Positions 3,081 to 41,042 of a stretch of 64,000 nt of DNA are shown here, in pieces. Numbering within the stretch: position 1 is the stretch's first letter; each line of letters opens with the position of its first letter. The notes beneath the pieces are model-generated. The model did no database searches and had not been told where the DNA came from. It saw only the letters and a program-made list of their open reading frames with translations. The DNA comes from Candidatus Yanofskybacteria bacterium RIFCSPHIGHO2_01_FULL_41_21 (lineage in GTDB: Bacteria; Patescibacteriota; Minisyncoccia; 2-02-FULL-40-12; GWA2-44-9), in the NCBI GenBank assembly GCA_001794025.1, contig MGJA01000008.1, positions 358-64,357 on the forward strand. The letters are read 5' to 3'. Both the position numbers and the translations under genes were made by a program.

Positions 3081-3779
3081 ATGGAAACTATACAAGACAA
3101 CCTTATTTCGTATGAAGATATGCTCAAGGCGGGTACGCATTTTGGTCGCAAAAAGACCGTTTATAACCCCCAAATGGCGCCTTATGTTTATATCGTTAGA
3201 GACGGTATTTGCATCATTGATCTTCTAAAGACCCAAACCGAATTAACTAATACAATCAAATTTTTAAAAAAGACAGCCGAGAACGGTGGCTTGATGCTTT
3301 TTGTTGGTCTAACCAAACAATCATCGGGTGGTATTAAAGAACTCGCCCAGGCCCTAAATATGCCCTATGTTATTGATCGCTGGATTGGTGGAACCTTGAC
3401 GAACTTTAAGATTATAAATGATCGTGTTAAGAAACTTGAAGAAATGGAAAAAGGTCTGAAAACGGGCGCTTACGATAAATACACTAAAAAAGAACGATTG
3501 ATGTTGACCCGTGAGATGAACAAGATGTCTACTCATTTTGAAGGACTGAAGAAGCTTACTAGAATGCCTGATGTTGTCTTTGTGTCATCTTTAAAAGAAA
3601 GTGCCCTTCCGCTTCATGAATCAAAGAAGATGGGTGTGGCCTGTGTTGCTATCACAAACACCGACTCAAACCCCAAGTCCGTGGACTATATCGTTCCGGC
3701 TAATGATCGTTCCAAGAAATCAGTTGACCTCATTTTGGATGCTCTCAAGCGAGAATTGACAGCTGTAACATCACAGTAA
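3081..3779 (+). CDS. rpsB: 30S ribosomal protein S2
   Basis: GTHFGRKKTVYNP...; start moved from 3057 to 3081 because first 24 nt belong to repeat family A. Confidence 0.9.
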   Translation: METIQDNLISYEDMLKAGTHFGRKKTVYNPQMAPYVYIVRDGICIIDLLKTQTELTNTIKFLKKTAENGGLMLFVGLTKQSSGGIKELAQALNMPYVIDRWIGGTLTNFKIINDRVKKLEEMEKGLKTGAYDKYTKKERLMLTREMNKMSTHFEGLKKLTRMPDVVFVSSLKESALPLHESKKMGVACVAITNTDSNPKSVDYIVPANDRSKKSVDLILDALKRELTAVTSQ

Positions 3780-5723: not shown

Positions 5724-5873
5724 CTAAGTTTTTGTCCAAGAGCTATAGCGATTGGTTACAAAAAGTTACCCGCCTCTGGCGGGAAGTAGTAGATAATTAA
5801 CCAGTAATTACGTCATATTTAGTAGTATTTAAATAGTTAAGTACTAAACATATTACGTGGTTCAATAGAAATT

Positions 5874-6038
5874 ATGCCACAAGATAATTTATTGAGGATG
5901 AAGTGTACGGTTTGTAAAAGTGCAAACTACTACACCAGTAAGAATAAAAAGAAGGTTGAAAGAAAGATTGAGTTAAAGAAATTTTGCAAAAAGTGCAAAA
6001 AGCGAACTCCTCACAAGGAGGCGCGTATGACCGGGTAG
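5874..6038 (+). CDS. rpmG: 50S ribosomal protein L33 (Zn-ribbon form), 54 aa, absent from ORF track (<60 aa)
   Basis: MPQDNLLRMKCTVCKSANYYTSKNKKKVERKIELKKFCKKCKKRTPHKEAR C4 L33 pattern. Confidence 0.8.
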   Translation: MPQDNLLRMKCTVCKSANYYTSKNKKKVERKIELKKFCKKCKKRTPHKEARMTG

Positions 6039-6112
6039 TAGAAGCCCGAAATGCTTTCAGCAAAAATATGTTCAGGCTTCACTACCCGGCAGGCCGGATA
6101 GAAGTCCGAGAA

Positions 6113-6183
6113 GGGGATGTCGTTCAATGGTAGGACTCTGGTCTCCAAAACCAGGTATCCAGGTCCGAATCCTGGCGTCCCCG
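6113..6183 (+). tRNA. tRNA-Trp (anticodon CCA)
   Basis: acceptor ggggatg/cgtcccc, anticodon stem ctggt/accag loop ctccaaa, T-arm ccagg tccgaat cctgg. Confidence 0.8.
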
Positions 6184-6233
6184 CCTTCGTTAACCTGCCG
6201 GCAGGCAGGAGCTACGGCGGATAAACCCGCCAA

Positions 6234-6272
6234 ACAAAAAACTGTTCCGCCTAAGCGGGACAGTTTTTTGTT
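6234..6272. terminator. bidirectional rho-independent terminator
   Basis: aaaaaactgttccgcctaagcgggacagttttttg: GC stem flanked by A-tract and T-tract. Confidence 0.65.
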
Positions 6273-6276
6273 TCTA

Positions 6277-6498
6277 TCATTCTGACTCTATCTTTATTTT
6301 AACTGGCGAGTAACCATCCTTACTATGTTCTATTTGTTTAAGGATAGCTTCTACTTCTTCTATCTTATACATCCGATAGTTATTCACAGGGTTGCGATAA
6401 GCCCGTAGCTTTCCTTTTTGATCCCAGTTGCGAACCGTCAAGGGGCTAACACCCAACAATCTAGCGACATCATTCACAGTCAAGAATTTTTTAGGCAT
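6277..6498 (-). CDS. excisionase/MerR-superfamily helix-turn-helix DNA-binding protein
   Basis: LTVNDVARLLGVSPLTVRNWDQKGKL HTH pattern; 73 aa. Confidence 0.7.
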   Translation of the reverse strand: MPKKFLTVNDVARLLGVSPLTVRNWDQKGKLRAYRNPVNNYRMYKIEEVEAILKQIEHSKDGYSPVKIKIESE

Positions 6499-6695
6499 AA
6501 ATTTAGTGGTTTTATTTTTAGGGTTCTTGGTTGATATACATTACTACTTTTAATAGATAATATCTTTAAATTTTTATAGAAGATATTTATTTTAAATCTA
6601 TCAACCTTTTATAAAGATAGCATACCTTTATACCCTGTAAATACGTAATGTTGATAAGTAAATCAAAAATCCAGATTTTTAAAGTAAAATCTGGA

Positions 6696-6735
6696 TTTTT
6701 AGGAATTAGGAATTAGGAATTAGGAATTAGGACCC
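6696..6735. repeat. tandem heptamer (ttaggaa)x5
   Basis: taggaattaggaattaggaattaggaattagga; a related tandem sits inside the giant CDS at 7340..7375. Confidence 0.8.
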
Positions 6736-7031
6736 GAAGTTATCCACTTTTTTTGGATACCCGATGGTACAATTTAACTAGATTTAAAGCCAAGATTTAT
6801 ATCTATCCGATATCATATCGGATAAGTGGAAAAAAGTTTAAAAAAGGAATGAACGTCTGAACGTCAGTTGAGTGAAAAAACATCCCGCCCTTCTTGGCGA
6901 AGGGCGGGAAGGAATGCACGCCTTGGCCCCGTCGGAAAACGAAGCCCATGGCCCATTAATTGTACAACGAAATAAAAGTGCAAGCAATTGAAAATTGCTT
7001 ATAAAATCTCAATCCTAATTCCTGTTTTTTT

Positions 7032-10000
7032 ATGTCCGATTATCAGCCCAAAAAATTACCTTCTCAATGGATCTCAATTCAAGAGGCGACGCGTCACGCA
7101 CCGTACTCGCAAGAGTATTTAAGTTTATTGGCGCGACGGGGAAAAATATTTGCTAAAAAAATTGGGCGGAATTGGTATACAACTCATGAAGCGTTAGAAC
7201 GTTATATTTCAGAGCAGACCCTTCTTTCACCGATAGCCAAACAATTCAGTCCTACCGTGGAACTTGCTTCGTCTTCCTCAAATTTAGTGGAAGAATTTAA
7301 ACGTCTTAATCCTCAAGTATTTGGGCAAGAAAAAAAGCAGGAATTAGGAATTAGGAATCAGGAATTAGGAAATACAAAACAAGGGATTGAATCGGTGCCA
7401 TCAGTACTTCCTAATGTTGCGCCAGCTCCGGTTACAATACCAACACCTACTATCCCTGTAATTCCGCAAAATAATTCAGAGAATAAAGTTCTTGAAAAAC
7501 TGGATCGATTATCTGATTCGTTGGAAACGTTTACTTCAAGTGTGACCGCATCAATTCCGGCTATAACCCAAGCGAATCAATCAGCGCCATTAAACCCCGA
7601 GGTTGAAGAATTTGTTCAGGAACGAATAAATTCTTCCATTCATAGATTCCGACATTTTGATCGTTTTGCAAAATCAACAACCCGATCTCCTGTCCGTTTA
7701 ATGGCCGTTATGATTACGGCTGTAGTGTTAATCTTTGTTCTTATCGGCGGGTTCAGTTTTGGAAAAGTAGATGCCGTTGCTCAAAAAATTAAAAAGGCCT
7801 TCAACGATGCCACCACGATTGATGGCCATTTTGCCGGGACGCATGCCAATGAGGTCTTAATTCTGGATAAGGCCGGCAATATTTCAATTTACGGCCATAT
7901 TGAAACCGAAGGTCAGTTTCGGAGCCATGCGCCGGAGGGCGTGGCGCCGATTGTGGTGGATTCGTTGACTAAAGTTGAAAATCTTAATGCTGATTACATT
8001 GATAATCTTAGTTCCCAGGACTTTACCCTCGCCTTCGTTACTAAAAATGGGAACCTAACCTATGAAGATGTCCATCTGATGGGTGATGTTGAAGTGGGAA
8101 AACTTCTTAAAGTCGGCGGGGATGCGATTATTGGGAAGACCCTAACCGTGTCCGGCGCCACCAAGCTAATGGACTCGTTAACTGTTTATGGCAAACTCGG
8201 AGTTCTTTCGGATGCGGTTTTCGGAAAAGATGTCACTCTCACCAATGGTGATCTCGTCATAAGCAAAGGCACCATTAAGATTTCTAATATGACTTTGATT
8301 AAAAATCTTAATGCCGAATATTTGGACGGTGTTAAAAAAGGAGACATCAATCTCAACTTTGTCACTTCAAACGGAAATACGACTTCAAACTCAATTACAG
8401 TTGGGGGTCTCACCTCAACCGGAACCATAACTTCTTACGGTCCGGGATTTTTTAATTCAAGTATCTGGAGTCCTTTCGGTTCTTTTGGTGATTTAGGTGT
8501 CGGAAAGAGCGCCAGTTTTGGCGACTCAAAAAATCCGAGTAATTCAAAATTTGAGGTCTATTCCAGTAAGTTTTCTCTTGATGCGAACGGTAATGCTCGA
8601 TTGGCCGGCACGACCACTACTAATAATTTATTAGTCAGTGGCAGTGTTTTATCGGGACTTATTCCTTCGGGATCATTTGATTTGGGCTCACTAGCACAAC
8701 CGTGGGTAAATCTTTATGCAATTGACGGAAATTTCTCCGGTGATATTACGGTCTCCGGCAGTTTAAATTTTGCCGGCACGACATCAAGTTCTTTTGTTAT
8801 CAATACCGATAATACCGCTTCTGATTCTGAAGATGCTTACTTAGCGTTTAGTCGCGGTTCAATAACTCCGGATGCGAAACTGACATGGAATTCCACTTTT
8901 AAACAATTTGAATTTAATGAACCAGTTAATATTGCCAGTAGTTCTTTCACGGTTGAAGGGAATACTTTTTTGAATAACGCTTCAGTTTCTAATAATTTTG
9001 AAGTTGTTGGCACCGCCTCTATCTCCGGTACCACCACCCTCGCCGGTCAAACCTACACCTGGCCTTCTTCCCAAACAACTAACGGTTTCCTTAAAACAAA
9101 CGGTACCGGCACTTTATCCTGGTCAACCGCTTTCTCCGGTACCATCGCTTCCTTATCTCAAAACTTTGACCCTGCCACCGACAATCAATACGACCTTGGC
9201 GACCCAAGCTACCGCTGGCGAACCGGTTACTTTGGGACCAGTATCATCTCTCCCTTTGCTTCTTTCACCAATGCCAGTGTTTCCAATAACTTTGAGATAG
9301 GTAACATTGCCAGTATCGGAGGAAATGCCACCATCGGCGGTACCCTTGGTGTAACCGGAAACACCACCCTCACAGGTACCCTAACTGGTAATTCAATTGG
9401 TTCCAACTCTTTTCAAGGTAGTTTAGATGTTGCCCTTGGTCTCCACGCTGTTGGTAACGTTACCACCCTTGCCCAATTCCTTTCTTCCGGAACAGGCAGT
9501 AACTCTTTTGCGGGCAGTTTAGATATCACCAAAGGTCTTCGGGCTGCCCAAATCACCGGTACCGGCCTTACCCTAAACGGAAATACCAATATCTCCGGTA
9601 CTCTCAATGTTATTGGTCAATCAAACTTCTCTAACGCTTCCGCTTCATCCGGATTTGAATCAACCTACCTGAAAACGGATACAATCTCTAATTCCACGGG
9701 CACCCTAACCATCAACGCTTTTACCCTTGGCGGATTAGTCACCGGCAACAATCAATCCATTACAGGATTAAATCAACTCACTTCATCTATCGCCAGTATC
9801 TCTACTAACTTTGAAGTCGGTGGTTATGCTTCAATCGGAGGAAACACCACCCTTGCGGGTCAAACATACACCTGGCCTTCCTCTCAAACAACCAACGGTT
9901 TTCTAAAAACAAACGGTTCTGGCACTTTATCCTGGTCAACCGCTTTTGCCGGTACCATAGCTTCCTTATCCCAAAACTTTGACCCCGCCACCGACAATCA

Positions 10001-13000
10001 ATACGACCTTGGCGACCCAAGCTACCGCTGGCGAACCGGTTATTTCGGGACCTCGCTAGGCATCAACAACGGCGGAACATTAAACACCGCCTTTGAAGTC
10101 GGAGGAACTGCTTCTATATCTAATACCTTAACTCTTGGCGGTATTATTACTTCCACAAATACCGGTTCCAACTCTTTCGCTGGAAGCATTGAACTTACTA
10201 AGGGCTTCCGATTCGGTAATCTTACTCAAACCGGAACAGGGATTAATTACTTTGCCGGCAACGTCGGTATTGGGACGAATTCACCGACCTCTCTCTTTAC
10301 TGTCCAAGGTCGGGGAGAATTCCAAGGCACGGCAAGCGCTTCCTATTTCCTAACCGGCAATACGATTCAAGTCGGTGGTTTCTCATCGGCCAGTTATAAC
10401 CGATTCGGGACCGGTACCACCAACCATGCTAATTATATTTCCACTTCTAATGATGTTCTCGTTTCCGGGGATTTGGAAATTTTGGGGACAGCTTCATTTG
10501 AAGGTAATGTCGTTATCGGCGCTACGAGTACAACCACTTTAGCCGTCGGTTCTACAGTCAAAAGCGACCTTATTCCGTTCACCAATGCCTACAATCTTGG
10601 TTCCACTACCAATCATTGGGGGACGCTATATGTTGATACCGCCAATATTACGACTCTAGAAGCATCAACAGCATCTATTTCCGGCACTACCGCTCGGGAT
10701 TTCCTAATTAATTCTGACAATGCTTCGGCGGATGCTGAAGATATGTCCGTCACATTTAAACGAGGTCTGCCTACGGTTAATGCCGCGCTTGAGTGGGATT
10801 CAACCAACAAGCGTTTTAATTTGAATTTTCCGATTTTCGTTCAGACCGTAGATAATCCGGAACCAAGCTATAATTTTACCCAGCTTGTCCTTAAAGGTGC
10901 CGCGGACCAGAGTTCAAATGATTATTTCCAAATTAAAGATTCTTCCGATGTTTCTAAGTTTCGGATAAGCGACAATGGCGCTTCATTTTCGGTTCCGTTT
11001 GAGCTTTCAAATACCGCTTCCATTTCCAACACTCTTACTCTCGGCGGTATCATTACTTCCACAAATACCGGTTCCAACAGTTTCTCGGGCGGTCTGGAAG
11101 TAACCAAAGGCATCCATGCCACGGGTTCAATCACTTCCGGCGGTGATTTAAGAATCAACGGCAACGCTAATCTTAACGGGGTCTTTGTTTTTGGTGACAA
11201 CGGCGATGTCGGGTCAATTAATACTAATGATTGGGACATTGCCATCGACGGCGCCTTAACCGGAATATCTTTTAACGCTAATGGGACCGGTAACTCAATA
11301 TCCAATATTGATAATGGTGACTTAACCGCCGATACTTTGGACTTCACCGCTATTTCCGACAGTCCCACCCTTGACGCTGACCTCTATATTCAAAGAGCCG
11401 GTTTCAAGATTGGTATCGGTAAGACCCCTTCTACCGTCTTTGAAGTCCAAGGCACGGCTTCCGCTTCCTACGGTCTCTTTGGTACCCTCCAAATCGGTGC
11501 CTTCTCATCAACAAGTTACAACAGATTCGGCACCACCACCACCGGTCACTCACTCTCCGCAAGTAATGACCTCTTAATATCCGGAGACCTGGAAGTAGAT
11601 GGTTCTGCATACTTTGATGGAAGCACAATCTTCGGTGCCGGTGCCTCCATTTCCGGTAACTTTGACCCCGCCACCGATAATACATATGACTTAGGGGATG
11701 CAAGTTATCGCTGGCAGACAGGTTATTTCGGAACATCATTGGGTATCAACAATGGAGGTACCCTTGACACCGCCTTTGAAGTCGGTGGCACGGCCTCTAT
11801 CTCTAACACCTTAACCCTCGGCGGTATTATTACTTCCACAAATACCGGTTCTAATTCTTTCTCGGGAAGTATCAATTTAGATAAAGGCCTCCATACTACC
11901 GGTAACGTTACCACCTTAGCCCAATTCCTTTCTTCCGGTACAGGCAGTAACAGTTTTGCTGGCAGTTTAAACATCTCCAAATCATTAACGGCGACCAATA
12001 GTGTTACAGCTGGCAGTTTTGTTACCGCCGGTAATCTCACTGTGGGTGGCAATGAGGTCTTAACGGGGACTTTCACTGGCAACTCTACCGGTTCCAACTC
12101 TTTCGCCGGTTCACTGGATATCATCAAAGGTCTTCGTTCCGCCAACTTCACTCAAGTCGGTTCCGCCCCAAACTACTTTAATGGCAACGTCGGCATCGGG
12201 ACGACGGCGCCAAATATCACGGCTTATGCCGGTCGTGTCTTGACCGTTGGTTCAGGCACGAGTGCGGAACCCGCCATCGAGATTTACGGAGGCAGAACTG
12301 GCTCGGATGGTATAGCAGCGGACATGGCTTTTTTAAACAGTTATGCTACTGGTGCCGATAAACGTATTGCATTGATTCGAGCAAACCGTATTACAGACGA
12401 CAATTCTGGGGGTCTTCAATTTTATTCAAGAAATGCGGGAACATTGGTAGAAGCGTTGCGAATAGATAAAACTGGCAACGTCGGCATCGGGACGACGGGG
12501 CCGGGGAATAAGCTCTCATTTGGCGCGAATAACTCGGCTCAGATTATCTCGTTGTATGAAAGTGGAAATACTAAGGTCACTATTGGTACGAATGACGGAT
12601 TTACATTTGCTGTTCCAAACACAAGTAACAATAATTTTAAATTTGGTACACTTTCCACAGCAGATGGAACAACTTTTTCGGAAAAAGTGAGAATTGATAA
12701 TAGCGGCAACGTCGGCATCGGGACGACGGGGCCTAGTGAATTATTGGAAGTGTCAAAAAGTACGGCAAGTGGAAATACTTTTATTCGTATTACAAATACT
12801 GACACCAGTGCTGATGGTGGTGAAGGGGCCGCTTTGGCATTGTATGAGGCAGGAACTCTTCGAACTCAATTCACTTCGAATTTTCAGGATCAGAAGATGT
12901 ATTTATATCATCGTGGGGACAACAGGGTCACGATAGATAATGTCGGCAACGTCGGCATCGGGACGACGGTACCAGGGCAAGCTTTAGAAGTTGGAGGCAC

Positions 13001-13712
13001 GGGCAAGGTAAAAATCGCCGCTTTGACCACCCAGGGCTATGTCTGCGTGGGTGGCAACCCCGGAGCCGGAGTCCTTTCCGATGGGGGAGCATCGTGTTCC
13101 ACTTCCGATGCCAGATTAAAAATAGACATTACCCCCATCTCGGATTCTCTGAATGTGCTTTCATCCCTGAATCAACTTCACGGAGTTTATTATCGTTGGG
13201 ATTTAAATAATCCAAGAAATGAAGGTATGCCTTCCAGCCGTCAAATCGGTATGATCGCCCAGGATGTGGAACAGGTGTTGCCGGAACTGGTATCTGTCGG
13301 CTCTGACGGCTATCGTTCTTTAGATTACCCCAAATTCACCGGTTTCCTGTTGGAAGCGGTCAAAGAGCTTGATAACAAAACAAACGCTTTGACAGGGCAA
13401 TTTGAGGCATTTACAAGCAAATTAGAGGCCCAATGCGTGACCGGAGATACGAGATTGCGCCGTAGGCGCAAGCGAGCCCGTCCCGATGCCGACGTTGAAG
13501 GCGAATTTGATTTTGATGAAGTTGAAATAAAAGATATTGTTGCAGGCGACGAAATCCAGTCGCTGAATGAGGCCACCGGCCGGGTGGAATTCGCTCGCGT
13601 GAACGCGCTTATGGACATGGGCGTCCAAGAGGTGTATGAATTGGTTACCAAGTCGGGGAGGAAGATTCGGACCACCAAAAATCATCCATATCTGGTAAAA
13701 CTGGGGTCATAA
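7032..13712 (+). CDS. giant tail-fibre-like surface protein: N-terminal HTH, TM helix, GNVGIGTT-type beta-repeats, C-terminal peptidase S74 intramolecular-chaperone domain, then N-terminal half of a split mini-intein
   Basis: HTH (WISIQEATRH...GRNWYT); TM LMAVMITAVVLIFVLIGGF; SDARLK...YYRWD...GMIAQDVEQVLPELV ICA motif; CVTGDT...TKNHPYLV Hint blocks A and B. Confidence 0.85.
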   Translation: MSDYQPKKLPSQWISIQEATRHAPYSQEYLSLLARRGKIFAKKIGRNWYTTHEALERYISEQTLLSPIAKQFSPTVELASSSSNLVEEFKRLNPQVFGQEKKQELGIRNQELGNTKQGIESVPSVLPNVAPAPVTIPTPTIPVIPQNNSENKVLEKLDRLSDSLETFTSSVTASIPAITQANQSAPLNPEVEEFVQERINSSIHRFRHFDRFAKSTTRSPVRLMAVMITAVVLIFVLIGGFSFGKVDAVAQKIKKAFNDATTIDGHFAGTHANEVLILDKAGNISIYGHIETEGQFRSHAPEGVAPIVVDSLTKVENLNADYIDNLSSQDFTLAFVTKNGNLTYEDVHLMGDVEVGKLLKVGGDAIIGKTLTVSGATKLMDSLTVYGKLGVLSDAVFGKDVTLTNGDLVISKGTIKISNMTLIKNLNAEYLDGVKKGDINLNFVTSNGNTTSNSITVGGLTSTGTITSYGPGFFNSSIWSPFGSFGDLGVGKSASFGDSKNPSNSKFEVYSSKFSLDANGNARLAGTTTTNNLLVSGSVLSGLIPSGSFDLGSLAQPWVNLYAIDGNFSGDITVSGSLNFAGTTSSSFVINTDNTASDSEDAYLAFSRGSITPDAKLTWNSTFKQFEFNEPVNIASSSFTVEGNTFLNNASVSNNFEVVGTASISGTTTLAGQTYTWPSSQTTNGFLKTNGTGTLSWSTAFSGTIASLSQNFDPATDNQYDLGDPSYRWRTGYFGTSIISPFASFTNASVSNNFEIGNIASIGGNATIGGTLGVTGNTTLTGTLTGNSIGSNSFQGSLDVALGLHAVGNVTTLAQFLSSGTGSNSFAGSLDITKGLRAAQITGTGLTLNGNTNISGTLNVIGQSNFSNASASSGFESTYLKTDTISNSTGTLTINAFTLGGLVTGNNQSITGLNQLTSSIASISTNFEVGGYASIGGNTTLAGQTYTWPSSQTTNGFLKTNGSGTLSWSTAFAGTIASLSQNFDPATDNQYDLGDPSYRWRTGYFGTSLGINNGGTLNTAFEVGGTASISNTLTLGGIITSTNTGSNSFAGSIELTKGFRFGNLTQTGTGINYFAGNVGIGTNSPTSLFTVQGRGEFQGTASASYFLTGNTIQVGGFSSASYNRFGTGTTNHANYISTSNDVLVSGDLEILGTASFEGNVVIGATSTTTLAVGSTVKSDLIPFTNAYNLGSTTNHWGTLYVDTANITTLEASTASISGTTARDFLINSDNASADAEDMSVTFKRGLPTVNAALEWDSTNKRFNLNFPIFVQTVDNPEPSYNFTQLVLKGAADQSSNDYFQIKDSSDVSKFRISDNGASFSVPFELSNTASISNTLTLGGIITSTNTGSNSFSGGLEVTKGIHATGSITSGGDLRINGNANLNGVFVFGDNGDVGSINTNDWDIAIDGALTGISFNANGTGNSISNIDNGDLTADTLDFTAISDSPTLDADLYIQRAGFKIGIGKTPSTVFEVQGTASASYGLFGTLQIGAFSSTSYNRFGTTTTGHSLSASNDLLISGDLEVDGSAYFDGSTIFGAGASISGNFDPATDNTYDLGDASYRWQTGYFGTSLGINNGGTLDTAFEVGGTASISNTLTLGGIITSTNTGSNSFSGSINLDKGLHTTGNVTTLAQFLSSGTGSNSFAGSLNISKSLTATNSVTAGSFVTAGNLTVGGNEVLTGTFTGNSTGSNSFAGSLDIIKGLRSANFTQVGSAPNYFNGNVGIGTTAPNITAYAGRVLTVGSGTSAEPAIEIYGGRTGSDGIAADMAFLNSYATGADKRIALIRANRITDDNSGGLQFYSRNAGTLVEALRIDKTGNVGIGTTGPGNKLSFGANNSAQIISLYESGNTKVTIGTNDGFTFAVPNTSNNNFKFGTLSTADGTTFSEKVRIDNSGNVGIGTTGPSELLEVSKSTASGNTFIRITNTDTSADGGEGAALALYEAGTLRTQFTSNFQDQKMYLYHRGDNRVTIDNVGNVGIGTTVPGQALEVGGTGKVKIAALTTQGYVCVGGNPGAGVLSDGGASCSTSDARLKIDITPISDSLNVLSSLNQLHGVYYRWDLNNPRNEGMPSSRQIGMIAQDVEQVLPELVSVGSDGYRSLDYPKFTGFLLEAVKELDNKTNALTGQFEAFTSKLEAQCVTGDTRLRRRRKRARPDADVEGEFDFDEVEIKDIVAGDEIQSLNEATGRVEFARVNALMDMGVQEVYELVTKSGRKIRTTKNHPYLVKLGS

Positions 13713-13840
13713 TTTTCAGTTTTCAATTATCAATTTTCAATGAATTTACAATGAATCAATTCATCAAAAAAATACAAAAAATAAGGGGAAGCTATATCAC
13801 GGATAGCGGGGTAAGTGTCGTTTTTTACGAAACTCGTGAG

Positions 13841-14221
13841 ATGGCGACCCTCCAAAGTCGTGATATAGAAAAGGTCTCTGCGACTCAACGAAGAGGCAAT
13901 GTCGGCACTGGGGAGGCAAGTCGTGATATGAAAATCATAGAAAATCAAAAAGCCCCGAACAATTGGGACTCTTTGAAGTGGACCCGAGGGGGTTTGCACC
14001 CCTTTCATCAGGTGCTAACGCTGATATGTTACTTCATACACCACGGGCCCGGATCCACACATTTATTATACAGAAAGATGACCGAAACATCAAAACAAAA
14101 AGAACCCCTTTTGAAAGAGGCCCTTTTTGTAGCACCTGATAATGTCCGCAATGTACGAACTATCAGCGTATACAGTAATTATACTCCTATCCATGAAGGT
14201 GTCAAGTGGATATGTGGATAA
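13841..14221 (+). CDS. hypothetical protein (first gene of intein-inserted module); start uncertain (track start 13751)
   Basis: ORF with RRGNVGTGE segment encoded by the shared GC-rich repeat; overlapping minus-strand ORF makes it uncertain. Confidence 0.35.
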   Translation: MATLQSRDIEKVSATQRRGNVGTGEASRDMKIIENQKAPNNWDSLKWTRGGLHPFHQVLTLICYFIHHGPGSTHLLYRKMTETSKQKEPLLKEALFVAPDNVRNVRTISVYSNYTPIHEGVKWICG

Positions 14222-14237
14222 TCAAAGATAATCAAAC

Positions 14238-15443
14238 ATGAATATATTCAATAAAATTAAGAAAATGATACGTCCCGCTGTCTCTGCTTCTCAACAAAAA
14301 GGCAATGTCGGCAGCGGGGCGGTCAATATTGGCGAAAGCAAAATCGCCGATTTTTGCCCCTACTGCAATTCCAAGGACTTCATGAAGCGAGGAATGCGAA
14401 AAAAGAAATTGGAACTGGTCCAGTTGTATTTGTGCCGAAATTGCAAACGGACATTTACTGCCCAGTTTATCAAAGGCAAGCATTATCCGACCAAGCTGAT
14501 TATTGACGCTATCAGTATTTACAATTTGGGGTATGGGTTGGAAGAGACATGTCGACTTATAAACCAGCGTTATGGCGTTAATCCCGGCGCAGCCACTTTA
14601 AATGGATGGTATGTGGAATATGCGCCCTTGTGCCGATATTCGCGGTTGCGTCAATTCGGGATGAAAATGTTTAAACCGGAAAATGTTGTGGAAGAAGTAA
14701 CTATGGCGCATCGGCAGTTGTACCGATATAGATTTCATCGGGCGAAAATGGAACTGGTCTTGCAGGATTTTAAGCACCACCGCTTTGAATCACTGAAGCA
14801 TTATCTGGAAGCGGTGGCGAGCGAGACACCGCACCAGTATTTTCAGGAAGGCGGGCGGATGTCGGAAGTCAAGACAAAATTTAATAAAGCCCAGATGATT
14901 GTCCGTTCAAAAAAGAATTACGCCAACCGGCTGGCGGAGTTTGTTTTGCAAGCCGTCAAGGATAATAAACAGCGCCACGAGGCCTTGCAAAAATTTATGC
15001 TCGCCAACGATTCGGTGACCGTGGCGACCGAGGTGCCGGTCTATATAAGAAGAGAAGATATCGGTCACATGGAAAATGATTTGGGATTTGAAGTGCTCAA
15101 TGAGGGCGAGGAAATACCAAGGTTGCTGACTGGACATATTGATTTAATCCAGGTGCGCAATGGGCAGGTTCATATACTTGATTTTAAGCCAAATGCAGCT
15201 AAAGAGAAACCAATTGAACAACTAACCTGGTACGCGCTGGCTTTGTCCCGCCTGACCGGTTTGCGATTATATGAATTTAAATGCGCCTGGTTTGACGGCA
15301 AAGATTATTTTGAATTTTATCCCTTGCACGTCGTCAAAAAAATTACCCACCGCTTGAAGAATAAAAAGGTATTTTTGAAGAGTCGCGGAACGTCAATTGA
15401 AATTCCAAATGAGGACTTAGGCAGAAAAGTAAAAGTGGTCTAG
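14238..15443 (+). CDS. Zn-ribbon + HTH (InsA-like) N-terminus fused to PD-(D/E)xK-like nuclease domain
   Basis: CPYCNSK...CRNCKRTF zinc ribbon; C-terminal GHIDLIQVRNGQVHILDFKP resembles D..(D/E)xK nuclease core. Confidence 0.65.
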   Translation: MNIFNKIKKMIRPAVSASQQKGNVGSGAVNIGESKIADFCPYCNSKDFMKRGMRKKKLELVQLYLCRNCKRTFTAQFIKGKHYPTKLIIDAISIYNLGYGLEETCRLINQRYGVNPGAATLNGWYVEYAPLCRYSRLRQFGMKMFKPENVVEEVTMAHRQLYRYRFHRAKMELVLQDFKHHRFESLKHYLEAVASETPHQYFQEGGRMSEVKTKFNKAQMIVRSKKNYANRLAEFVLQAVKDNKQRHEALQKFMLANDSVTVATEVPVYIRREDIGHMENDLGFEVLNEGEEIPRLLTGHIDLIQVRNGQVHILDFKPNAAKEKPIEQLTWYALALSRLTGLRLYEFKCAWFDGKDYFEFYPLHVVKKITHRLKNKKVFLKSRGTSIEIPNEDLGRKVKVV

Positions 15444-15476: not shown

Positions 15477-16049
15477 ATGACCTATACTACATTTAAAAAA
15501 TATGCGCCAAAAAAGCCCGTGCATAAGTTCACGGATTTAGAAGTTTATCAGCAGACACTGGCCTTGTCGGTGATTATTATGAAGGACTTAAAACCTAAAC
15601 TGATAATACTTGAGTACCCGTTTTTGGAGAATTTAACAAATGGCGCGATTTCATTGCCACTATGGATTGCCGAAGCTCATTCAGTAAGGTTCGGAGACCA
15701 TGCCGTCGGCTTGGGTTTATTGGAAAAAGTCATGTCTGGCTGTAATAAAATGGTGGTATACTTAGAGCAAGCCAAAGGAATTTATCGCCCCGCTGCCGAG
15801 GTTGCCTCTTCGTTGAGAAGCAGAGACCTGTCCCAAGTGGGACAAAGTGACGACCAAAGGTCGGCAACAAACAAAATCGGCACCGGGGCCCTCGACCCGG
15901 ACCTGATAGACGATTTAATTAAACGTTATCATGACGTTCGGACCAAAGTTTTTCGTCTAAGCAAATCGTGGCAAAAGTGGTACGATGTCCCGCTGCCGAA
16001 ATTGCCTTCTATTGAAAAGCGGGAACAGCGGGACAAAATAAATATATGA
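15477..16049 (+). CDS. four-helix-bundle protein (23S rRNA intervening-sequence protein / DGR Avd family)
   Basis: KFTDLEVYQQTLAL...LPLWIAEAHSVRFGDHAVGLGLLEKVMSGCNKMVVYLEQAK matches 4HB family pattern; ATGA overlap with next gene. Confidence 0.7.
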   Translation: MTYTTFKKYAPKKPVHKFTDLEVYQQTLALSVIIMKDLKPKLIILEYPFLENLTNGAISLPLWIAEAHSVRFGDHAVGLGLLEKVMSGCNKMVVYLEQAKGIYRPAAEVASSLRSRDLSQVGQSDDQRSATNKIGTGALDPDLIDDLIKRYHDVRTKVFRLSKSWQKWYDVPLPKLPSIEKREQRDKINI

Positions 16050-17638
16050 AAAAGATAAATAATAATAAAATATCGGCATCGGGACGCTCAAAGAGCGGCA
16101 TGAGCAATCTCGGCACCGGGACGTGGACAAAAGTATCGGAATTAAGACCGGGTATGAAAATTGCCGTGCCGAAAAATGAAATCGGCATCGGGACAGACGA
16201 TGTATTGTGGGACGAAATTGTCGCAGTTAATCATATCGGCCGGGAACGGGTCTATGATATTGAAGTGGAAGGCACTCATAATTTTATTGGTAATGATATT
16301 TTCGCTCATAATACTTACATCAATAACGATTTAATAAATATTTCGGCGATTAATCTTGAAGTCGGAGATATTGTTCGGCCCGCCTCGGGTTCCCAAAGGT
16401 TCGTCGTTGCCACTCCGGCTGATGAAAATCAAGTTGCAGGCATTGTTACCGCTACGCCGGCCACTTCAGATAGCGTCTCAACTTCAATCGCTTTTTCGGG
16501 ACAGGCCATAGTAAAGGTCTCGGCGGAAAATGGCGCGATTAAAGTCGGTGATCGGCTGGCCTTAAGCGATAACCAGCCTGGTGTGGCCATAAAAGCCACC
16601 ACGGCCGGCATGACTATCGGTATCGCAATGGAAGACGCAATAGTAGATAGGGTTTTAACTCTTGTTAATGTCGGATATTGGGTGCCGAGTGTGGCGACTG
16701 TTACTGGAACAACTGCCAGTGGTTCGGGAACGGTTACGGTCTCTTCAAGCGGTTCACCGACTGATGTGTTGGCGACATTGGCGAATGCGGTCATGACTCG
16801 TGTTCAGTCAATTTGGGCATCGGGAGATATCATCAAAGAAGGCATAAGCAAAACGTATTTTGCAATTTCCAATTTACAATTATCAATTTCCAATTTTGGA
16901 ACCTCAATCTCTGAAGCAATTAGTAATTGGGGGACCAGAGATATTACTATTGCCAATACGGCGGATGATGCGACCAAGGCATTATTTACGGGCAATTCGG
17001 CGCAAGCGTCTGACCAGTCCAAAGTTGATTTAGCCGAGAATAATGAATATCTGACGACTTATGGCGTGGATTCAACAAGAGGGGAGATTCAACTTTCCGG
17101 TTCGTCGCAAATCGTCGCTGGCGAAGCCAGGGTTTATTTTGACTATTCTTTCTCCTCAATTATTTCCGACAAAGCGCCGATTAGAGTAATCGTAACCCCA
17201 ACCTCAATGATGCAAGGGCAGCTTTACACTGATTCCAAGTCACAATACGGTTTCGTAATTAAAGAATTGAATGCCCAAGATAACGGAACATTTGACTGGC
17301 TGGTGATTGCAAGACGAAAAGGTTTTGATACAGACATAATTTCCACCCCGACCCCGGATTCGACAAGCTCACCACAAGCAACACCGGCCACTGCTCCATC
17401 AACTGACCCTACCCCCACCCCGACTCCTGACGTAGCACCAACATCGGATGTTACTCCTACCCCAACCCCAACCCCTGATGCAGCACCAGTTACTGATGCA
17501 ACACCTGCGCCTACCCCAGAACCAACCCCAGATATAACTCCAGTTCCTGATACTACTCCGACACCTGTCCCAGACGCTACACCAGAACCGACACCATCAT
17601 CAATAACACCCGAAAGTACACCTACCCCAACCCCATAA
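16046..17638 (+). CDS. protein starting with C-terminal half of split mini-intein (16046..16312) followed by C-extein with beta-rich domain and Pro/Thr-rich tail
   Basis: WTKVSELRPGMKIAV...VYDIEVEGTHNFIGNDIFAHN then +1 Thr; PT-rich low-complexity C-terminus. Confidence 0.8.
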   Translation: MKKINNNKISASGRSKSGMSNLGTGTWTKVSELRPGMKIAVPKNEIGIGTDDVLWDEIVAVNHIGRERVYDIEVEGTHNFIGNDIFAHNTYINNDLINISAINLEVGDIVRPASGSQRFVVATPADENQVAGIVTATPATSDSVSTSIAFSGQAIVKVSAENGAIKVGDRLALSDNQPGVAIKATTAGMTIGIAMEDAIVDRVLTLVNVGYWVPSVATVTGTTASGSGTVTVSSSGSPTDVLATLANAVMTRVQSIWASGDIIKEGISKTYFAISNLQLSISNFGTSISEAISNWGTRDITIANTADDATKALFTGNSAQASDQSKVDLAENNEYLTTYGVDSTRGEIQLSGSSQIVAGEARVYFDYSFSSIISDKAPIRVIVTPTSMMQGQLYTDSKSQYGFVIKELNAQDNGTFDWLVIARRKGFDTDIISTPTPDSTSSPQATPATAPSTDPTPTPTPDVAPTSDVTPTPTPTPDAAPVTDATPAPTPEPTPDITPVPDTTPTPVPDATPEPTPSSITPESTPTPTP

Positions 17639-17708: not shown

Positions 17709-18242
17709 ATGAAAAAACGCCAAGTTTTAGTAGCTATAATATCCGCGTTGGGAAAAACTTTTGAATCTATAGACGAAATGACTCCGAATCTTTTTAGAAG
17801 AGAATCAATGCATTACAAAGATCTTCGTCTTGCCGGTTATGATCCCAAAAAAATTTATAGATCTTTTAGAAATCTACATAGTCGCGGACTAGTTCATTTA
17901 GAAAAAGATAAATTTAAAATTACTAAAAAGGGTCAAAAATGGCTGACGAATTCTTATCAAAGGTATTTTCATTTCAATAAAATCGCCAAAGATAATAAAT
18001 GGCGAATTATTATTTTTGACATTCCTCAGGAACACAATAAAAGTCGCAACAAGTTGAGGAACAAATTAAAGTTATGGGGGTTTTATATGTTACAGCGTAG
18101 TGTTTTTGTTTGTCCCTATGAGTGTGAAGATGAATTGGCTAAATTATGCGAAAAATTAAACATTTCCGATTATATCGATATAATATTAGCTGATTCACCA
18201 GGATTTAGAACAAAAGAAATAAAGAAATACTTTGAATTATAA
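17709..18242 (+). CDS. PaaX-like putative regulator: N-terminal wHTH-like region + C-terminal Cas2-fold domain
   Basis: WRIIIFDIPQEHNKSRNKLRNKLKLWGFYMLQRSVFVC matches Cas2/PaaX_C-type motif (FDI...R..L...G....QxSVFxC). Confidence 0.6.
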   Translation: MKKRQVLVAIISALGKTFESIDEMTPNLFRRESMHYKDLRLAGYDPKKIYRSFRNLHSRGLVHLEKDKFKITKKGQKWLTNSYQRYFHFNKIAKDNKWRIIIFDIPQEHNKSRNKLRNKLKLWGFYMLQRSVFVCPYECEDELAKLCEKLNISDYIDIILADSPGFRTKEIKKYFEL

Positions 18243-20946: not shown

Positions 20947-21969
20947 GTGTTGAAGTATCAAATTGATAGACAAAAGATCAATATCACAGTCACCGTTTTG
21001 GTGGCTGTGATGGTTTTATGGTTTGTTTGGGTTGTTTTTGTTCCGACGTCGGTAATGGGTACGGCCCAACAGATTCATATCGGTTCCGGTCAAGGGTTGA
21101 CTGATATTGCCAAGATACTCAAAGAGCGTGATTTAGTTCGTAGTGCGATAGTGTTTAAATTCTATGTGATTGGTTTGGGTTGGGAACGGAATCTTAAAGC
21201 GGGGGATTATACTATTTCAGCCGGTGCTACTCTTAATGACATTGCTGTTCAAATTGCGGGAGGCAATGGAGTGTCAACCGATATAGAGGTCTTTATCCCC
21301 GAGGGCTCAAATATTTGGGAAATTGATAAACGGCTCACGGACGTAGGGCTTATTAAAGAAGGCGAATTTGCGTCGGCGTATGGTTCGCGAGAAGGATATC
21401 TGTTTCCCGATACTTATAGATTTCGGCCGGATAGTTTACTTGGAGAAATTGAGCAAAAAATGGAGTTAAACGGTCAAGAAAAAACCAAGGAATTAATCGG
21501 GGGATTGACTGCGCCGGCCCGTGATAGAATTATAACCATTGCATCTATTATTGAAAAAGAAGCCCGCACCAAATCCGATATGTATTTGGTATCAGGGGTT
21601 ATTGCAAACCGCACTGAATTGGGAATGCCACTGGAAATTGACGCCACGGTTGCTTACGGAGCATGCCTTAACAATTTTCAATTATCAATTTCCAATTTTC
21701 AAAAATCTGAAAAAGAGATAAAAGATTGTGATGTTACTCAAATCGGGGTTGGTAAGGAGATTAAAATTGATTCACCCTATAATACTTACACCCGGTCCGG
21801 TTTACCGATCCGACCAATCTCTAATCCCGGGCTTAATTCTATTGAAACCGCCCTTAATCCTAAAGGGGACTACTTTTATTATCTCTCCACTCGTGACGGC
21901 AGTCAGATTATTTTTTCTAAAACAGGGGTTGAACATACTCAAAATAGGCGTAAGTACTTAGGGTTGTAA
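20947..21969 (+). CDS. mltG: endolytic murein transglycosylase MltG (YceG-like)
   Basis: GDYTISAGATLNDIAVQIAGG, EGYLFPDTYRF, ASIIEKEAR YceG signatures. Confidence 0.8.
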   Translation: MLKYQIDRQKINITVTVLVAVMVLWFVWVVFVPTSVMGTAQQIHIGSGQGLTDIAKILKERDLVRSAIVFKFYVIGLGWERNLKAGDYTISAGATLNDIAVQIAGGNGVSTDIEVFIPEGSNIWEIDKRLTDVGLIKEGEFASAYGSREGYLFPDTYRFRPDSLLGEIEQKMELNGQEKTKELIGGLTAPARDRIITIASIIEKEARTKSDMYLVSGVIANRTELGMPLEIDATVAYGACLNNFQLSISNFQKSEKEIKDCDVTQIGVGKEIKIDSPYNTYTRSGLPIRPISNPGLNSIETALNPKGDYFYYLSTRDGSQIIFSKTGVEHTQNRRKYLGL

Positions 21970-40410: not shown

Positions 40411-40496
40411 ATTTTCAATTATCAATTTACAATAAATTATCAATAGCTCAATTCTCAAACACTGAAAATTGAAAACTGAAAATTGTAAATTAAACC
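40411..40496 (+). repeat. AT-rich ~85-nt element upstream of grpE (family H), tandem tgaaaattg units, terminal aatttacaat/attgtaaatt
   Basis: direct repeat of 40948..41042. Confidence 0.7.
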
Positions 40497-40949: not shown

Positions 40950-41042
40950 TTTACAGTTATCAATTAACAATTTACAATAAATTATCAATAGCTCAGTTTT
41001 CAAACATTGAAAATTGGAAACTGAAAATTGAAAATTGATTTT
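40948..41042 (+). repeat. second copy of family H element upstream of dnaK
   Basis: caatttacaataaattatcaatagctcagttttcaaacattgaaaattggaaactgaaaattg. Confidence 0.7.

Follow-up and report, generated by a model that had tools for sequence, protein, structure and literature searches.

A zinc-ribbon and RecB-like nuclease gene with a four-helix-bundle partner in the split intein of a fibre-like gene: a candidate mobile cassette of Candidate Phyla Radiation bacteria

We analysed a 64,000-nucleotide stretch of DNA, hereafter the window, from Candidatus Yanofskybacteria bacterium RIFCSPHIGHO2_01_FULL_41_21 (GenBank assembly GCA_001794025.1, contig MGJA01000008.1, positions 358 to 64,357 of the forward strand), which belongs to the Patescibacteria or Candidate Phyla Radiation (CPR). 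The gene under study is an open reading frame (ORF) of 401 amino acids on the plus strand (14238..15443) that joins a zinc ribbon and a helix-turn-helix (HTH) to a RecB-like PD-(D/E)xK nuclease domain. It lies between the two halves of an intein in a surface fibre-like gene. The explanation that we favour, and to which we give an even chance, is that the nuclease gene belongs to a mobile cassette of two or three genes, that its product is a free-standing homing-endonuclease-like enzyme, and that the cassette has split a mini-intein in the fibre gene.

By its splicing blocks and profile matches, the host gene is fractured into an N-extein-IntN part and an IntC-C-extein part, and the intein is broken at the canonical endonuclease insertion point. 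The N-extein (7032..13433, plus strand) carries GNVGIGT motifs and a Peptidase_S74 (S74) domain and ends ...KLEAQ directly before the intein Cys1. IntN (13434..13712, plus strand; 92 amino acids and a stop) contains block A (CVTGDTRL), a polybasic RRRRKRAR loop and block B (TKNHP), and its coding region (13434-13709) closes an ORF (7032..13712) whose fibre-like product has 2,226 amino acids. IntC (16046..16312, plus strand) opens an ORF of 530 amino acids (16046..17638) and has cores of the repeat described below in its leader (16073, 16110 and 16182), followed by blocks F/G (VYDIEVEGTHNFIGNDIFAHN). Thr+1 opens the C-extein (16313..17638, plus strand; TYINNDL...), which has a Pro/Thr-rich tail at its end. 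The splicing blocks are thus all present, from Cys1 and TKNHP to VYDIEVEGTHNFIGNDIFAHN|T with its terminal His-Asn and the Thr +1 nucleophile. TIGR01445 and TIGR01443 matched the halves with 29.4 bits (cut-off 24.5) and 34.3 bits (cut-off 15.6), respectively, and positions 9-71 of Pfam Intein_splicing fell in IntN and positions 114-155 in IntC. The two halves would be expected to associate and to trans-splice. A concatenated IntN+IntC query found no protein spanning both halves of the window intein; contiguous relatives were found by hidden Markov model (HMM) in three loci, L191, L036 and L086.

Two observations concern these inteins more broadly. L191 (from IMG/VR, about 5800-6890) has a viral fibre gene in which the 21-mer described below occurs 16 times and whose contiguous intein holds a weak DUF3800-like insert in its slot. 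In every intein of this family a polybasic Arg/Lys loop stands right after block A, in the window (13455-13478) as in L001, L002, L011, L018, L019, L024, L036 and L191; an acidic stretch comes after it, which in the window holds an antisense motif core (13482-13492).

An earlier note on this DNA, made from its letters, had read the N-terminus of the nuclease as an IS1/IS1595-type zinc ribbon with an HTH and the C-terminus as a D...D-x-K site, and both assignments were borne out. In a profile search, residues 40-75 matched NCBIfam NF050000 (IS1_IS1595_Zn) with 34.1 bits (cut-off 28). The ribbon (14355-14456) has the cysteines C40 and C43 (CPYC) and C66 and C69 (CRNC), and HTH-like helices follow it (14490-14618). 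Models of IS1 and IS6 transposases covered just residues 40-108 and 79-134, respectively, which is the N-terminal DNA-binding part. Residues 234-339 matched Pfam PDDEXK_1 (PF12705) with 26.2 bits (cut-off 22). Within the nuclease core (15018-15317; these features are all on the plus strand), HIDLIQ carries D302 (codon 15141-15143) and HILDFKP carries D315 (15180-15182) and K317 (15186-15188). The four cysteines and E265, H300, D302, D315, K317, Q328 and Y332 were invariant in an alignment of 41 homologues. Q328 and Y332 belong to QLTWY, the QxxxY motif of the enzyme, and to judge from this alignment the motif set is the complete RecB/AddB/Cas4 type.

The structure prediction that the note had proposed as a check returned a nuclease fold with a complete site. 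The AlphaFold2 model had a predicted local distance difference test score (pLDDT) of 72.6 and a predicted template modelling score of 0.66 overall, with a pLDDT of 85-90 in the alpha/beta core (residues 261-360). A disordered leader (residues 1-35) precedes a beta ribbon (48-74) and three HTH-like helices (85-96, 101-112 and 118-127); between these and the core lies a helical stretch of about 130 residues that is conserved. When the 50 best of 318 Foldseek matches to the Protein Data Bank (PDB) were inspected, AddA and RecB nuclease domains came first, followed by Cas4, MGME1 and RecE; the best matches among viral models were phage RecB-family exonucleases. A PDB sequence search (E <= 10) listed seven chains, with zinc-finger matches only.

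The nuclease ORF is under strong purifying selection. Compared with six relatives, the proportion of nonsynonymous differences was 0.03-0.22 and that of synonymous differences 0.68-0.89; dN/dS was 0.06-0.09 where it could be estimated, with synonymous sites saturated. The product is therefore predicted, from motifs, model and conservation, to be a functional, catalytically complete nuclease.

Homologues of the nuclease number more than 1,600, and those with a named source all came from CPR/Patescibacteria assemblies; an exhaustive search yielded 1,812 clusters at 50% identity. No homologue was found in annotated phage genomes. We compared 27 genome loci with the window (28 loci) and added eight further loci that carry the nuclease and were selected by motif, giving 36 in total. 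In all 24 of the 27 genome loci for which downstream sequence exists, the nuclease gene is followed by a gene for a four-helix-bundle (4HB) protein. The window copy of this partner (15477..16049, plus strand, 190 amino acids) encodes a divergent bundle of the 23S_rRNA_IVP/Avd type; in the ATGA at 16046-16049 its stop and the start of IntC overlap. PF05635 (23S_rRNA_IVP) matched 8 of 13 partner proteins, with a best E-value of 1.4e-9, and the window copy scored below the cut-off; the partner proteins share the signature DLxVYQ...IAE..S.RF and are the same size as Avd/23S-IVS proteins. A free-standing gene for an NYN protein, a PIN-like nuclease, accompanies the nuclease in 8 of the 36 loci and never occurs in nuclease-free loci (examples are L019 8167-8643, L024 7741-8217, L026 1032-1508, L013 858-1322 and L027 1936-2400).

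The position of the cassette varies among related loci. It lies between related intein halves in 10 of the 28 loci, the window included, and with L036 in 11 of the 36. The inteins of this family occupy two sites. Site 1, after the S74 domain, is used in the window, L001 and L002; site 2, exactly 39 nucleotides past a GNVGIGT motif, is used in L011, L018, L019, L024, P0077, P0114, L036 and the viral L191. An intein-less junction would read ...AAATTAGAGGCCCAA|ACTTATATT... at site 1 and, at site 2, the 21-mer plus 39 nucleotides | ACNTAYGCN.... In P0077, P0114 and L036, IntN is fused in frame to the nuclease, and intein 1 of L036, which is contiguous, holds an NYN domain in its slot (9290-10378; 75 bits, a confident match). 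Outside inteins, most cassettes directly follow a GNVGIGT/S74 fibre gene that is intact, as in L004, L005, L006 and L121, and several of these loci share the membrane-protein and YceG-like genes that lie downstream in the window. The syntenic locus L117 has neither intein nor cassette. In a neighbour-joining tree without support values, intein-embedded and free-standing nucleases were interspersed. This polymorphism in presence and position, with two intein sites, downstream cassettes and a cassette-free locus, is consistent with mobility. As a separate observation, the reverse strand of L117 has, at about 1330-2172, an ORF of the RAYT/IS200-like tyrosine-transposase type between the fibre and membrane-protein genes, judged by eye.

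Under the favoured explanation, the nuclease gene, the Avd/23S-IVS-like 4HB gene and, in some genomes, the NYN gene would form a movable unit that GNVGIGT/Peptidase_S74 fibre-like genes of CPR bacteria may or may not carry. In fibre alleles that lack the cassette, the zinc ribbon and HTH would recognise a particular sequence for the RecB-like domain to cut, and double-strand-break repair on a cassette-bearing template would pass the cassette on, either together with the intein or alone. In loci such as the window, the cassette would have entered the endonuclease slot of a mini-intein and broken it in two, and trans-splicing would rebuild the fibre protein. As the halves are expected to trans-splice, the insertion should cost the host little. 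Architecture, catalytic completeness, fold, selection, intein anatomy, cassette conservation, host-gene association and polymorphism are what the analysis shows; sequence-specific cleavage, homing, trans-splicing and the role of the 4HB protein are what we infer.

Several points weigh against this explanation. The note had suggested that the nuclease may be the mobility enzyme of the inserted module, and the two intein sites, the IntN fusions, the other nuclease-type domains in the slot of contiguous relatives and the cassette-free L117 agree with that; however, only about 30% of the examined family members lie in inteins and about 70% lie outside them. Distant relatives (33-45% identity) occur in unrelated variable regions, one among housekeeping genes, one beside a group II intron reverse transcriptase (RT) and two as tandem paralogue pairs. 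An exact empty-site allele of site 1 was not recovered among the loci. The intein-free L003, L005 and L117 differ in domain content beside that site, and L117 and L005 are without a module of about 130 amino acids. Saturated synonymous divergence under strong selection suggests long residence better than rapid invasion and decay. Perfect copies of the 21-mer remain in the host gene, so the motif alone is no lethal cleavage site. The RecB/Cas4/RecE branch consists mostly of end-processing or single-stranded-DNA nucleases, and we know of no site-specific duplex cutter within it; a constant 4HB partner likewise has, to our knowledge, no counterpart in known homing systems.

The earlier note also described a shared repeat near the 5' end of the nuclease gene. 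The repeat is real and stands where described, although its full length is about 48 nucleotides and the window contains four copies, two in each orientation. Copy 1 (13872-13916, plus strand) has direct repeats AAGTCGTGATAT on either side (13855-13871 and 13918-13934), and copy 2 (14280-14327, plus strand) encodes residues 15-30 of the disordered leader of the nuclease. Copies 3 (15780-15829) and 4 (15987-16034), both on the minus strand, lie in the 4HB gene, the latter at its 3' end. Copies of the 48-nucleotide repeat within the 64 kb are restricted to the module. Its core is the 21-mer GGCAACGTCGGCATCGGGACG; a 20-mer gave 11 matches in the window against 0.01 expected, and perfect 20-mers stand in the N-extein at 12183, 12474, 12705 and 12945. 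The 11-mer core TCGGCANCGGG has 12 copies in the 64 kb against 0.05 expected, all between 12190 and 16192. Four of these are host GNVGIGT codons, and the other eight lie in the intein halves and the cassette. Because these eight fall in varied frames and both orientations, the core is a DNA-level element.

Full-length repeat copies differ in position among the closest relatives, where they form in-frame insertions in the nuclease and 4HB genes. These varied positions indicate small insertions of recent date. The window example is a palindromic insertion of about 103 nucleotides in frame in the 4HB gene (15787..15889), which combines copy 3 with a plus-orientation core (15877-15887), is closed by CCCCGCTGCCGA/TCGGCACCGGGG and has a z-score of -2.95. 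Small palindromic elements of about 48-103 nucleotides were also seen in L001 (1072-1121), L002 (2067-2113, 2372-2417 and 2948-2994) and L025 (685-731), and such small in-frame elements recall the Rickettsia palindromic elements. Motif-like cores recur in the leaders of the nuclease and 4HB genes of most loci.

In the host genes, 48 of 73 GNVGIGT-type motifs from 18 genomes were spelled exactly GGCAACGTCGGCATCGGGAC, against the prevailing codon bias. Third-position identity was 0.81-0.84 for GNVGIGT versus 0.31-0.51 for invariant peptides of the nuclease and 4HB proteins in the same genomes, and 47 of 68 copies of the 21-mer were identical. The conservation of the 21-mer at the DNA level far exceeds what amino-acid conservation explains. 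Scans for the exact 21-mer listed at least 120 stretches from metagenomes and at least 120 viral ones from IMG/VR, a giant-virus metagenome-assembled genome included; the roughly 90% rate of S74 hits in these scans is partly circular, as the S74 HMM contains the motif peptide. Among the matches listed, at least 120 of each kind, the nuclease lay near the 21-mer in eight metagenomic stretches and in no viral one. The 21-mer is therefore a general feature of these fibre genes, and it is the cassette that depends on motif-bearing genes, not the reverse. The nuclease was accordingly rejected as the cause of the conservation of the motif, and the proposal that this repeat is the target of the nuclease found no support: most occurrences of the 21-mer have no nuclease beside them, so the repeat is not accounted for by the enzyme.

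These data also bear on the alternatives to a mobile homing-type cassette. A possible reading, which we consider unlikely, is that the nuclease is a passenger with no part in mobility, either an exonuclease for repair or end processing or else the toxic or defensive member of a two-gene nuclease/4HB module, that has collected in a variable island beside fibre genes. It agrees with the structural neighbours, which are exonucleases and Cas4, with a weak PADLOC match to Argonaute-associated Cas4-like nucleases, with the tight organisation of the two genes, and with the islands of the distant relatives, which hold IS66, a resolvase and a Schlafen-type ATPase or the group II intron RT and in some cases tandem paralogues. 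It hardly accounts for the precise placement in the slot of related inteins at two sites or for the in-frame fusion to IntN; moreover, no PADLOC model matched over its full length. A Cas4 or defence system as such was rejected, as the iron-sulphur (Fe-S) cysteines of Cas4 are absent and the PADLOC matches are local only. The nuclease and its Avd-like partner could instead be a domesticated recombination factor that acts at the 21-mer and shuffles GNVGIGT-delimited fibre modules, its location in an intein being incidental. The retention of the 21-mer at synonymous positions would fit such a factor, as would the restriction of all 12 cores, whose frame and orientation vary, to the module and the fibre 3' region, the motif-like cores in the nuclease and 4HB leaders, the long-term selection on the nuclease and its constant linkage to fibre genes. 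Avd-family proteins serve fibre diversification in diversity-generating retroelements (DGRs), which also counts in its favour. We nevertheless hold this, too, to be unlikely. The nuclease is near the 21-mer in just 8 of at least 240 stretches, none of them viral, so the conservation of the motif is independent of the nuclease; L117 works without the cassette; and the module has no RT and its repeat variants no adenine-specific pattern. A DGR was rejected on the latter grounds, as no RT domain was found in the ORFs of the module, the part of the window to which that scan was confined, and the repeat variants differ at C, T and G and not specifically at A. A bolder form of the same idea, which we regard as distinctly unlikely, makes the nuclease and its partner an RT-free system that uses the 21-mer GGCAACGTCGGCATCGGGACG as a portable recombination site, both for its own transfer and to shuffle fibre modules inside one genome or across genomes, perhaps with exchange between cells and viruses; the scattered motif-like sequences in the cassette would then be landing or recombination footprints.

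Least convincing to us, and in our estimate improbable, is a transposase-like enzyme in which the IS1/IS1595-type head and the PD-(D/E)xK domain mobilise the cassette, or the MITE-like (miniature inverted-repeat transposable element) repeats of about 48-103 nucleotides, by cut and paste. In its favour, the N-terminal region shows homology to the parts of IS1, IS1595 and IS6 transposases that bind DNA. In addition, inverted 48-nucleotide copies (14280-14327 and 15780-15827, 88% complementary) bracket most of the nuclease gene, a 12-nucleotide direct repeat lies on either side of copy 1, and the differing in-frame positions of full-length repeats in L001, L002 and L025 imply recent insertions. 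However, the DDE domain is absent and the IS1 equivalog model reached 25 bits against a cut-off of 100. The repeat copies do not leave the module within the 64 kb, whereas another small repeat family is dispersed, and the cassette keeps to one genomic niche and was never found dispersed. A transposon with terminal inverted repeats was rejected, since the inverted pair of the window is lacking around the cassette in 10 other loci.

The mobile homing-type cassette that we favour is best compared with published fractured genes. In these, an N-extein-IntN gene is followed by a free-standing endonuclease gene on the same strand and an IntC-C-extein gene, with 27-51 non-coding bases ahead of the endonuclease gene; the host genes encode phage-type DNA-metabolism enzymes and the nucleases are of the GIY-YIG or Vsr-like/EDxHD type (Dassa et al. 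2009, PMC2677866). The window locus has the same order, the same strand and a break at the canonical endonuclease point, and its relatives include both free-standing and in-frame fused copies, as the gene-breaking model predicts. It differs in its host, a CPR gene for a surface fibre-like protein, in the Zn-ribbon/HTH and RecB-like architecture of the nuclease, and in the gap of 2.3 kb, which holds several genes (tRNA, nuclease and 4HB, with NYN in relatives). The nuclease thus does occupy the endonuclease slot, as the earlier note had proposed, but shares it with a leader fragment, a tRNA-Leu unit and a second gene.

Known homing enzymes of the superfamily, I-Ssp6803I (PD-(D/E)xK) and I-Bth0305I (EDxHD), are small proteins that resemble either restriction enzymes/Hjc or Vsr (Taylor & Stoddard 2012, PMC3384342). 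They have in common with the window nuclease the superfamily and a coding position in or next to a self-splicing element. Neither appeared among the seven PDB chains or the 50 best of the 318 Foldseek matches noted above. The designation as a homing-endonuclease analogue is supported by the position in the slot, while the fold is of the RecB/Cas4 branch and unlike that of the restriction-enzyme-like I-Ssp6803I. With RecB, AddA and Cas4 the nuclease shares the motif set (D, D-x-K and QxxxY) and the fold. Unlike RecB and AddA it has no helicase domains, and it carries the transposase-type zinc ribbon/HTH and the helical middle region; unlike Cas4 it has a single conserved cysteine (C349) after the QxxxY helix and no cysteine triad. 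Neither a CRISPR array nor cas1 was seen beside the nuclease gene. The four-cysteine ribbon followed by an HTH is shared with IS1 InsA, IS1595 and IS6. The match to NF033558 reached 25.3 bits (cut-off 100), covered residues 40-108 only and was not accompanied by a DDE domain, and terminal inverted repeats around the cassette are not a family-wide feature. The 4HB protein differs from Avd/23S-IVS proteins in that neither an RT (among the module ORFs) nor a template repeat lies alongside.

Literature searches found no reports on the nuclease family, its pairing with an Avd-like protein, the motif, NYN domains in inteins or inteins in CPR fibre genes. New here are the host class (CPR surface-fibre genes), the nuclease architecture, the obligatory Avd-like partner and a multi-gene slot that includes a tRNA. 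The locus would extend the fractured-gene state, reported until now from phage-like DNA-metabolism genes only, to cellular surface-protein genes of the CPR and would add a candidate new homing nuclease, both intein-associated and free-standing, with a transposase-type head, a RecB-like nuclease and an Avd-like partner. Free-standing, fractured, IntN-fused and in-frame slot states stand side by side among related loci, which makes the entry of endonucleases into inteins and the origin of split inteins directly testable. If the nuclease is sequence-specific, targeted DNA cleavage would gain a new modular scaffold. That the 21-mer is conserved at the nucleotide level in cellular and viral fibre genes alike is itself a puzzling phenomenon.

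The remainder of the gap, upstream of the nuclease gene, holds a duplicated sequence like the nuclease leader (13751..13950, plus strand), which includes repeat copy 1, and a tRNA-Leu(UAG) unit on the minus strand (13945..14205). The latter comprises a perfect sigma-70-type promoter (TTGACA-16-TATAAT, 14205->14178), the tRNA itself (14050->13978) and a terminator-like hairpin (13976->13945), and L002 has the same tRNA-Leu at the same place (1701-1773). The ORF 13751..14221 was rejected as a gene and is probably spurious, since it overlaps this tRNA unit with its own promoter and terminator; its likeness to the nuclease leader is limited to the first 66 or so residues. The nuclease ORF of L024 contains an antisense tRNA-Asp (6343-6416), which is read through in frame and accounts for an insertion of about 75 amino acids.

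Among the distant relatives, tandem nuclease paralogues were seen at 3910-6062 in L030 and 3547-5638 in L031, with an ORF of 150-171 amino acids ahead, and it is the L031 pair that IS66, resolvase and Schlafen-type ATPase genes flank. Just downstream of the fibre gene, the window encodes a PaaX_M/Cas2-like protein with an N-terminal winged helix (17709-18242), of which L005 has a homologue; no CRISPR array or cas1 was noted by this gene. The second, dispersed family of small repeats consists of AATTTTCA-type heptamers at 13697-13741, 16850-16908, 21672-21696, 40416-40485 and 40961-41037 and in L002 at 3316-3366. These lie both between genes and in frame within them, being read as ISNLQLSISNF in the C-extein and as NNFQLSISNFQ in ORF 20947..21969.

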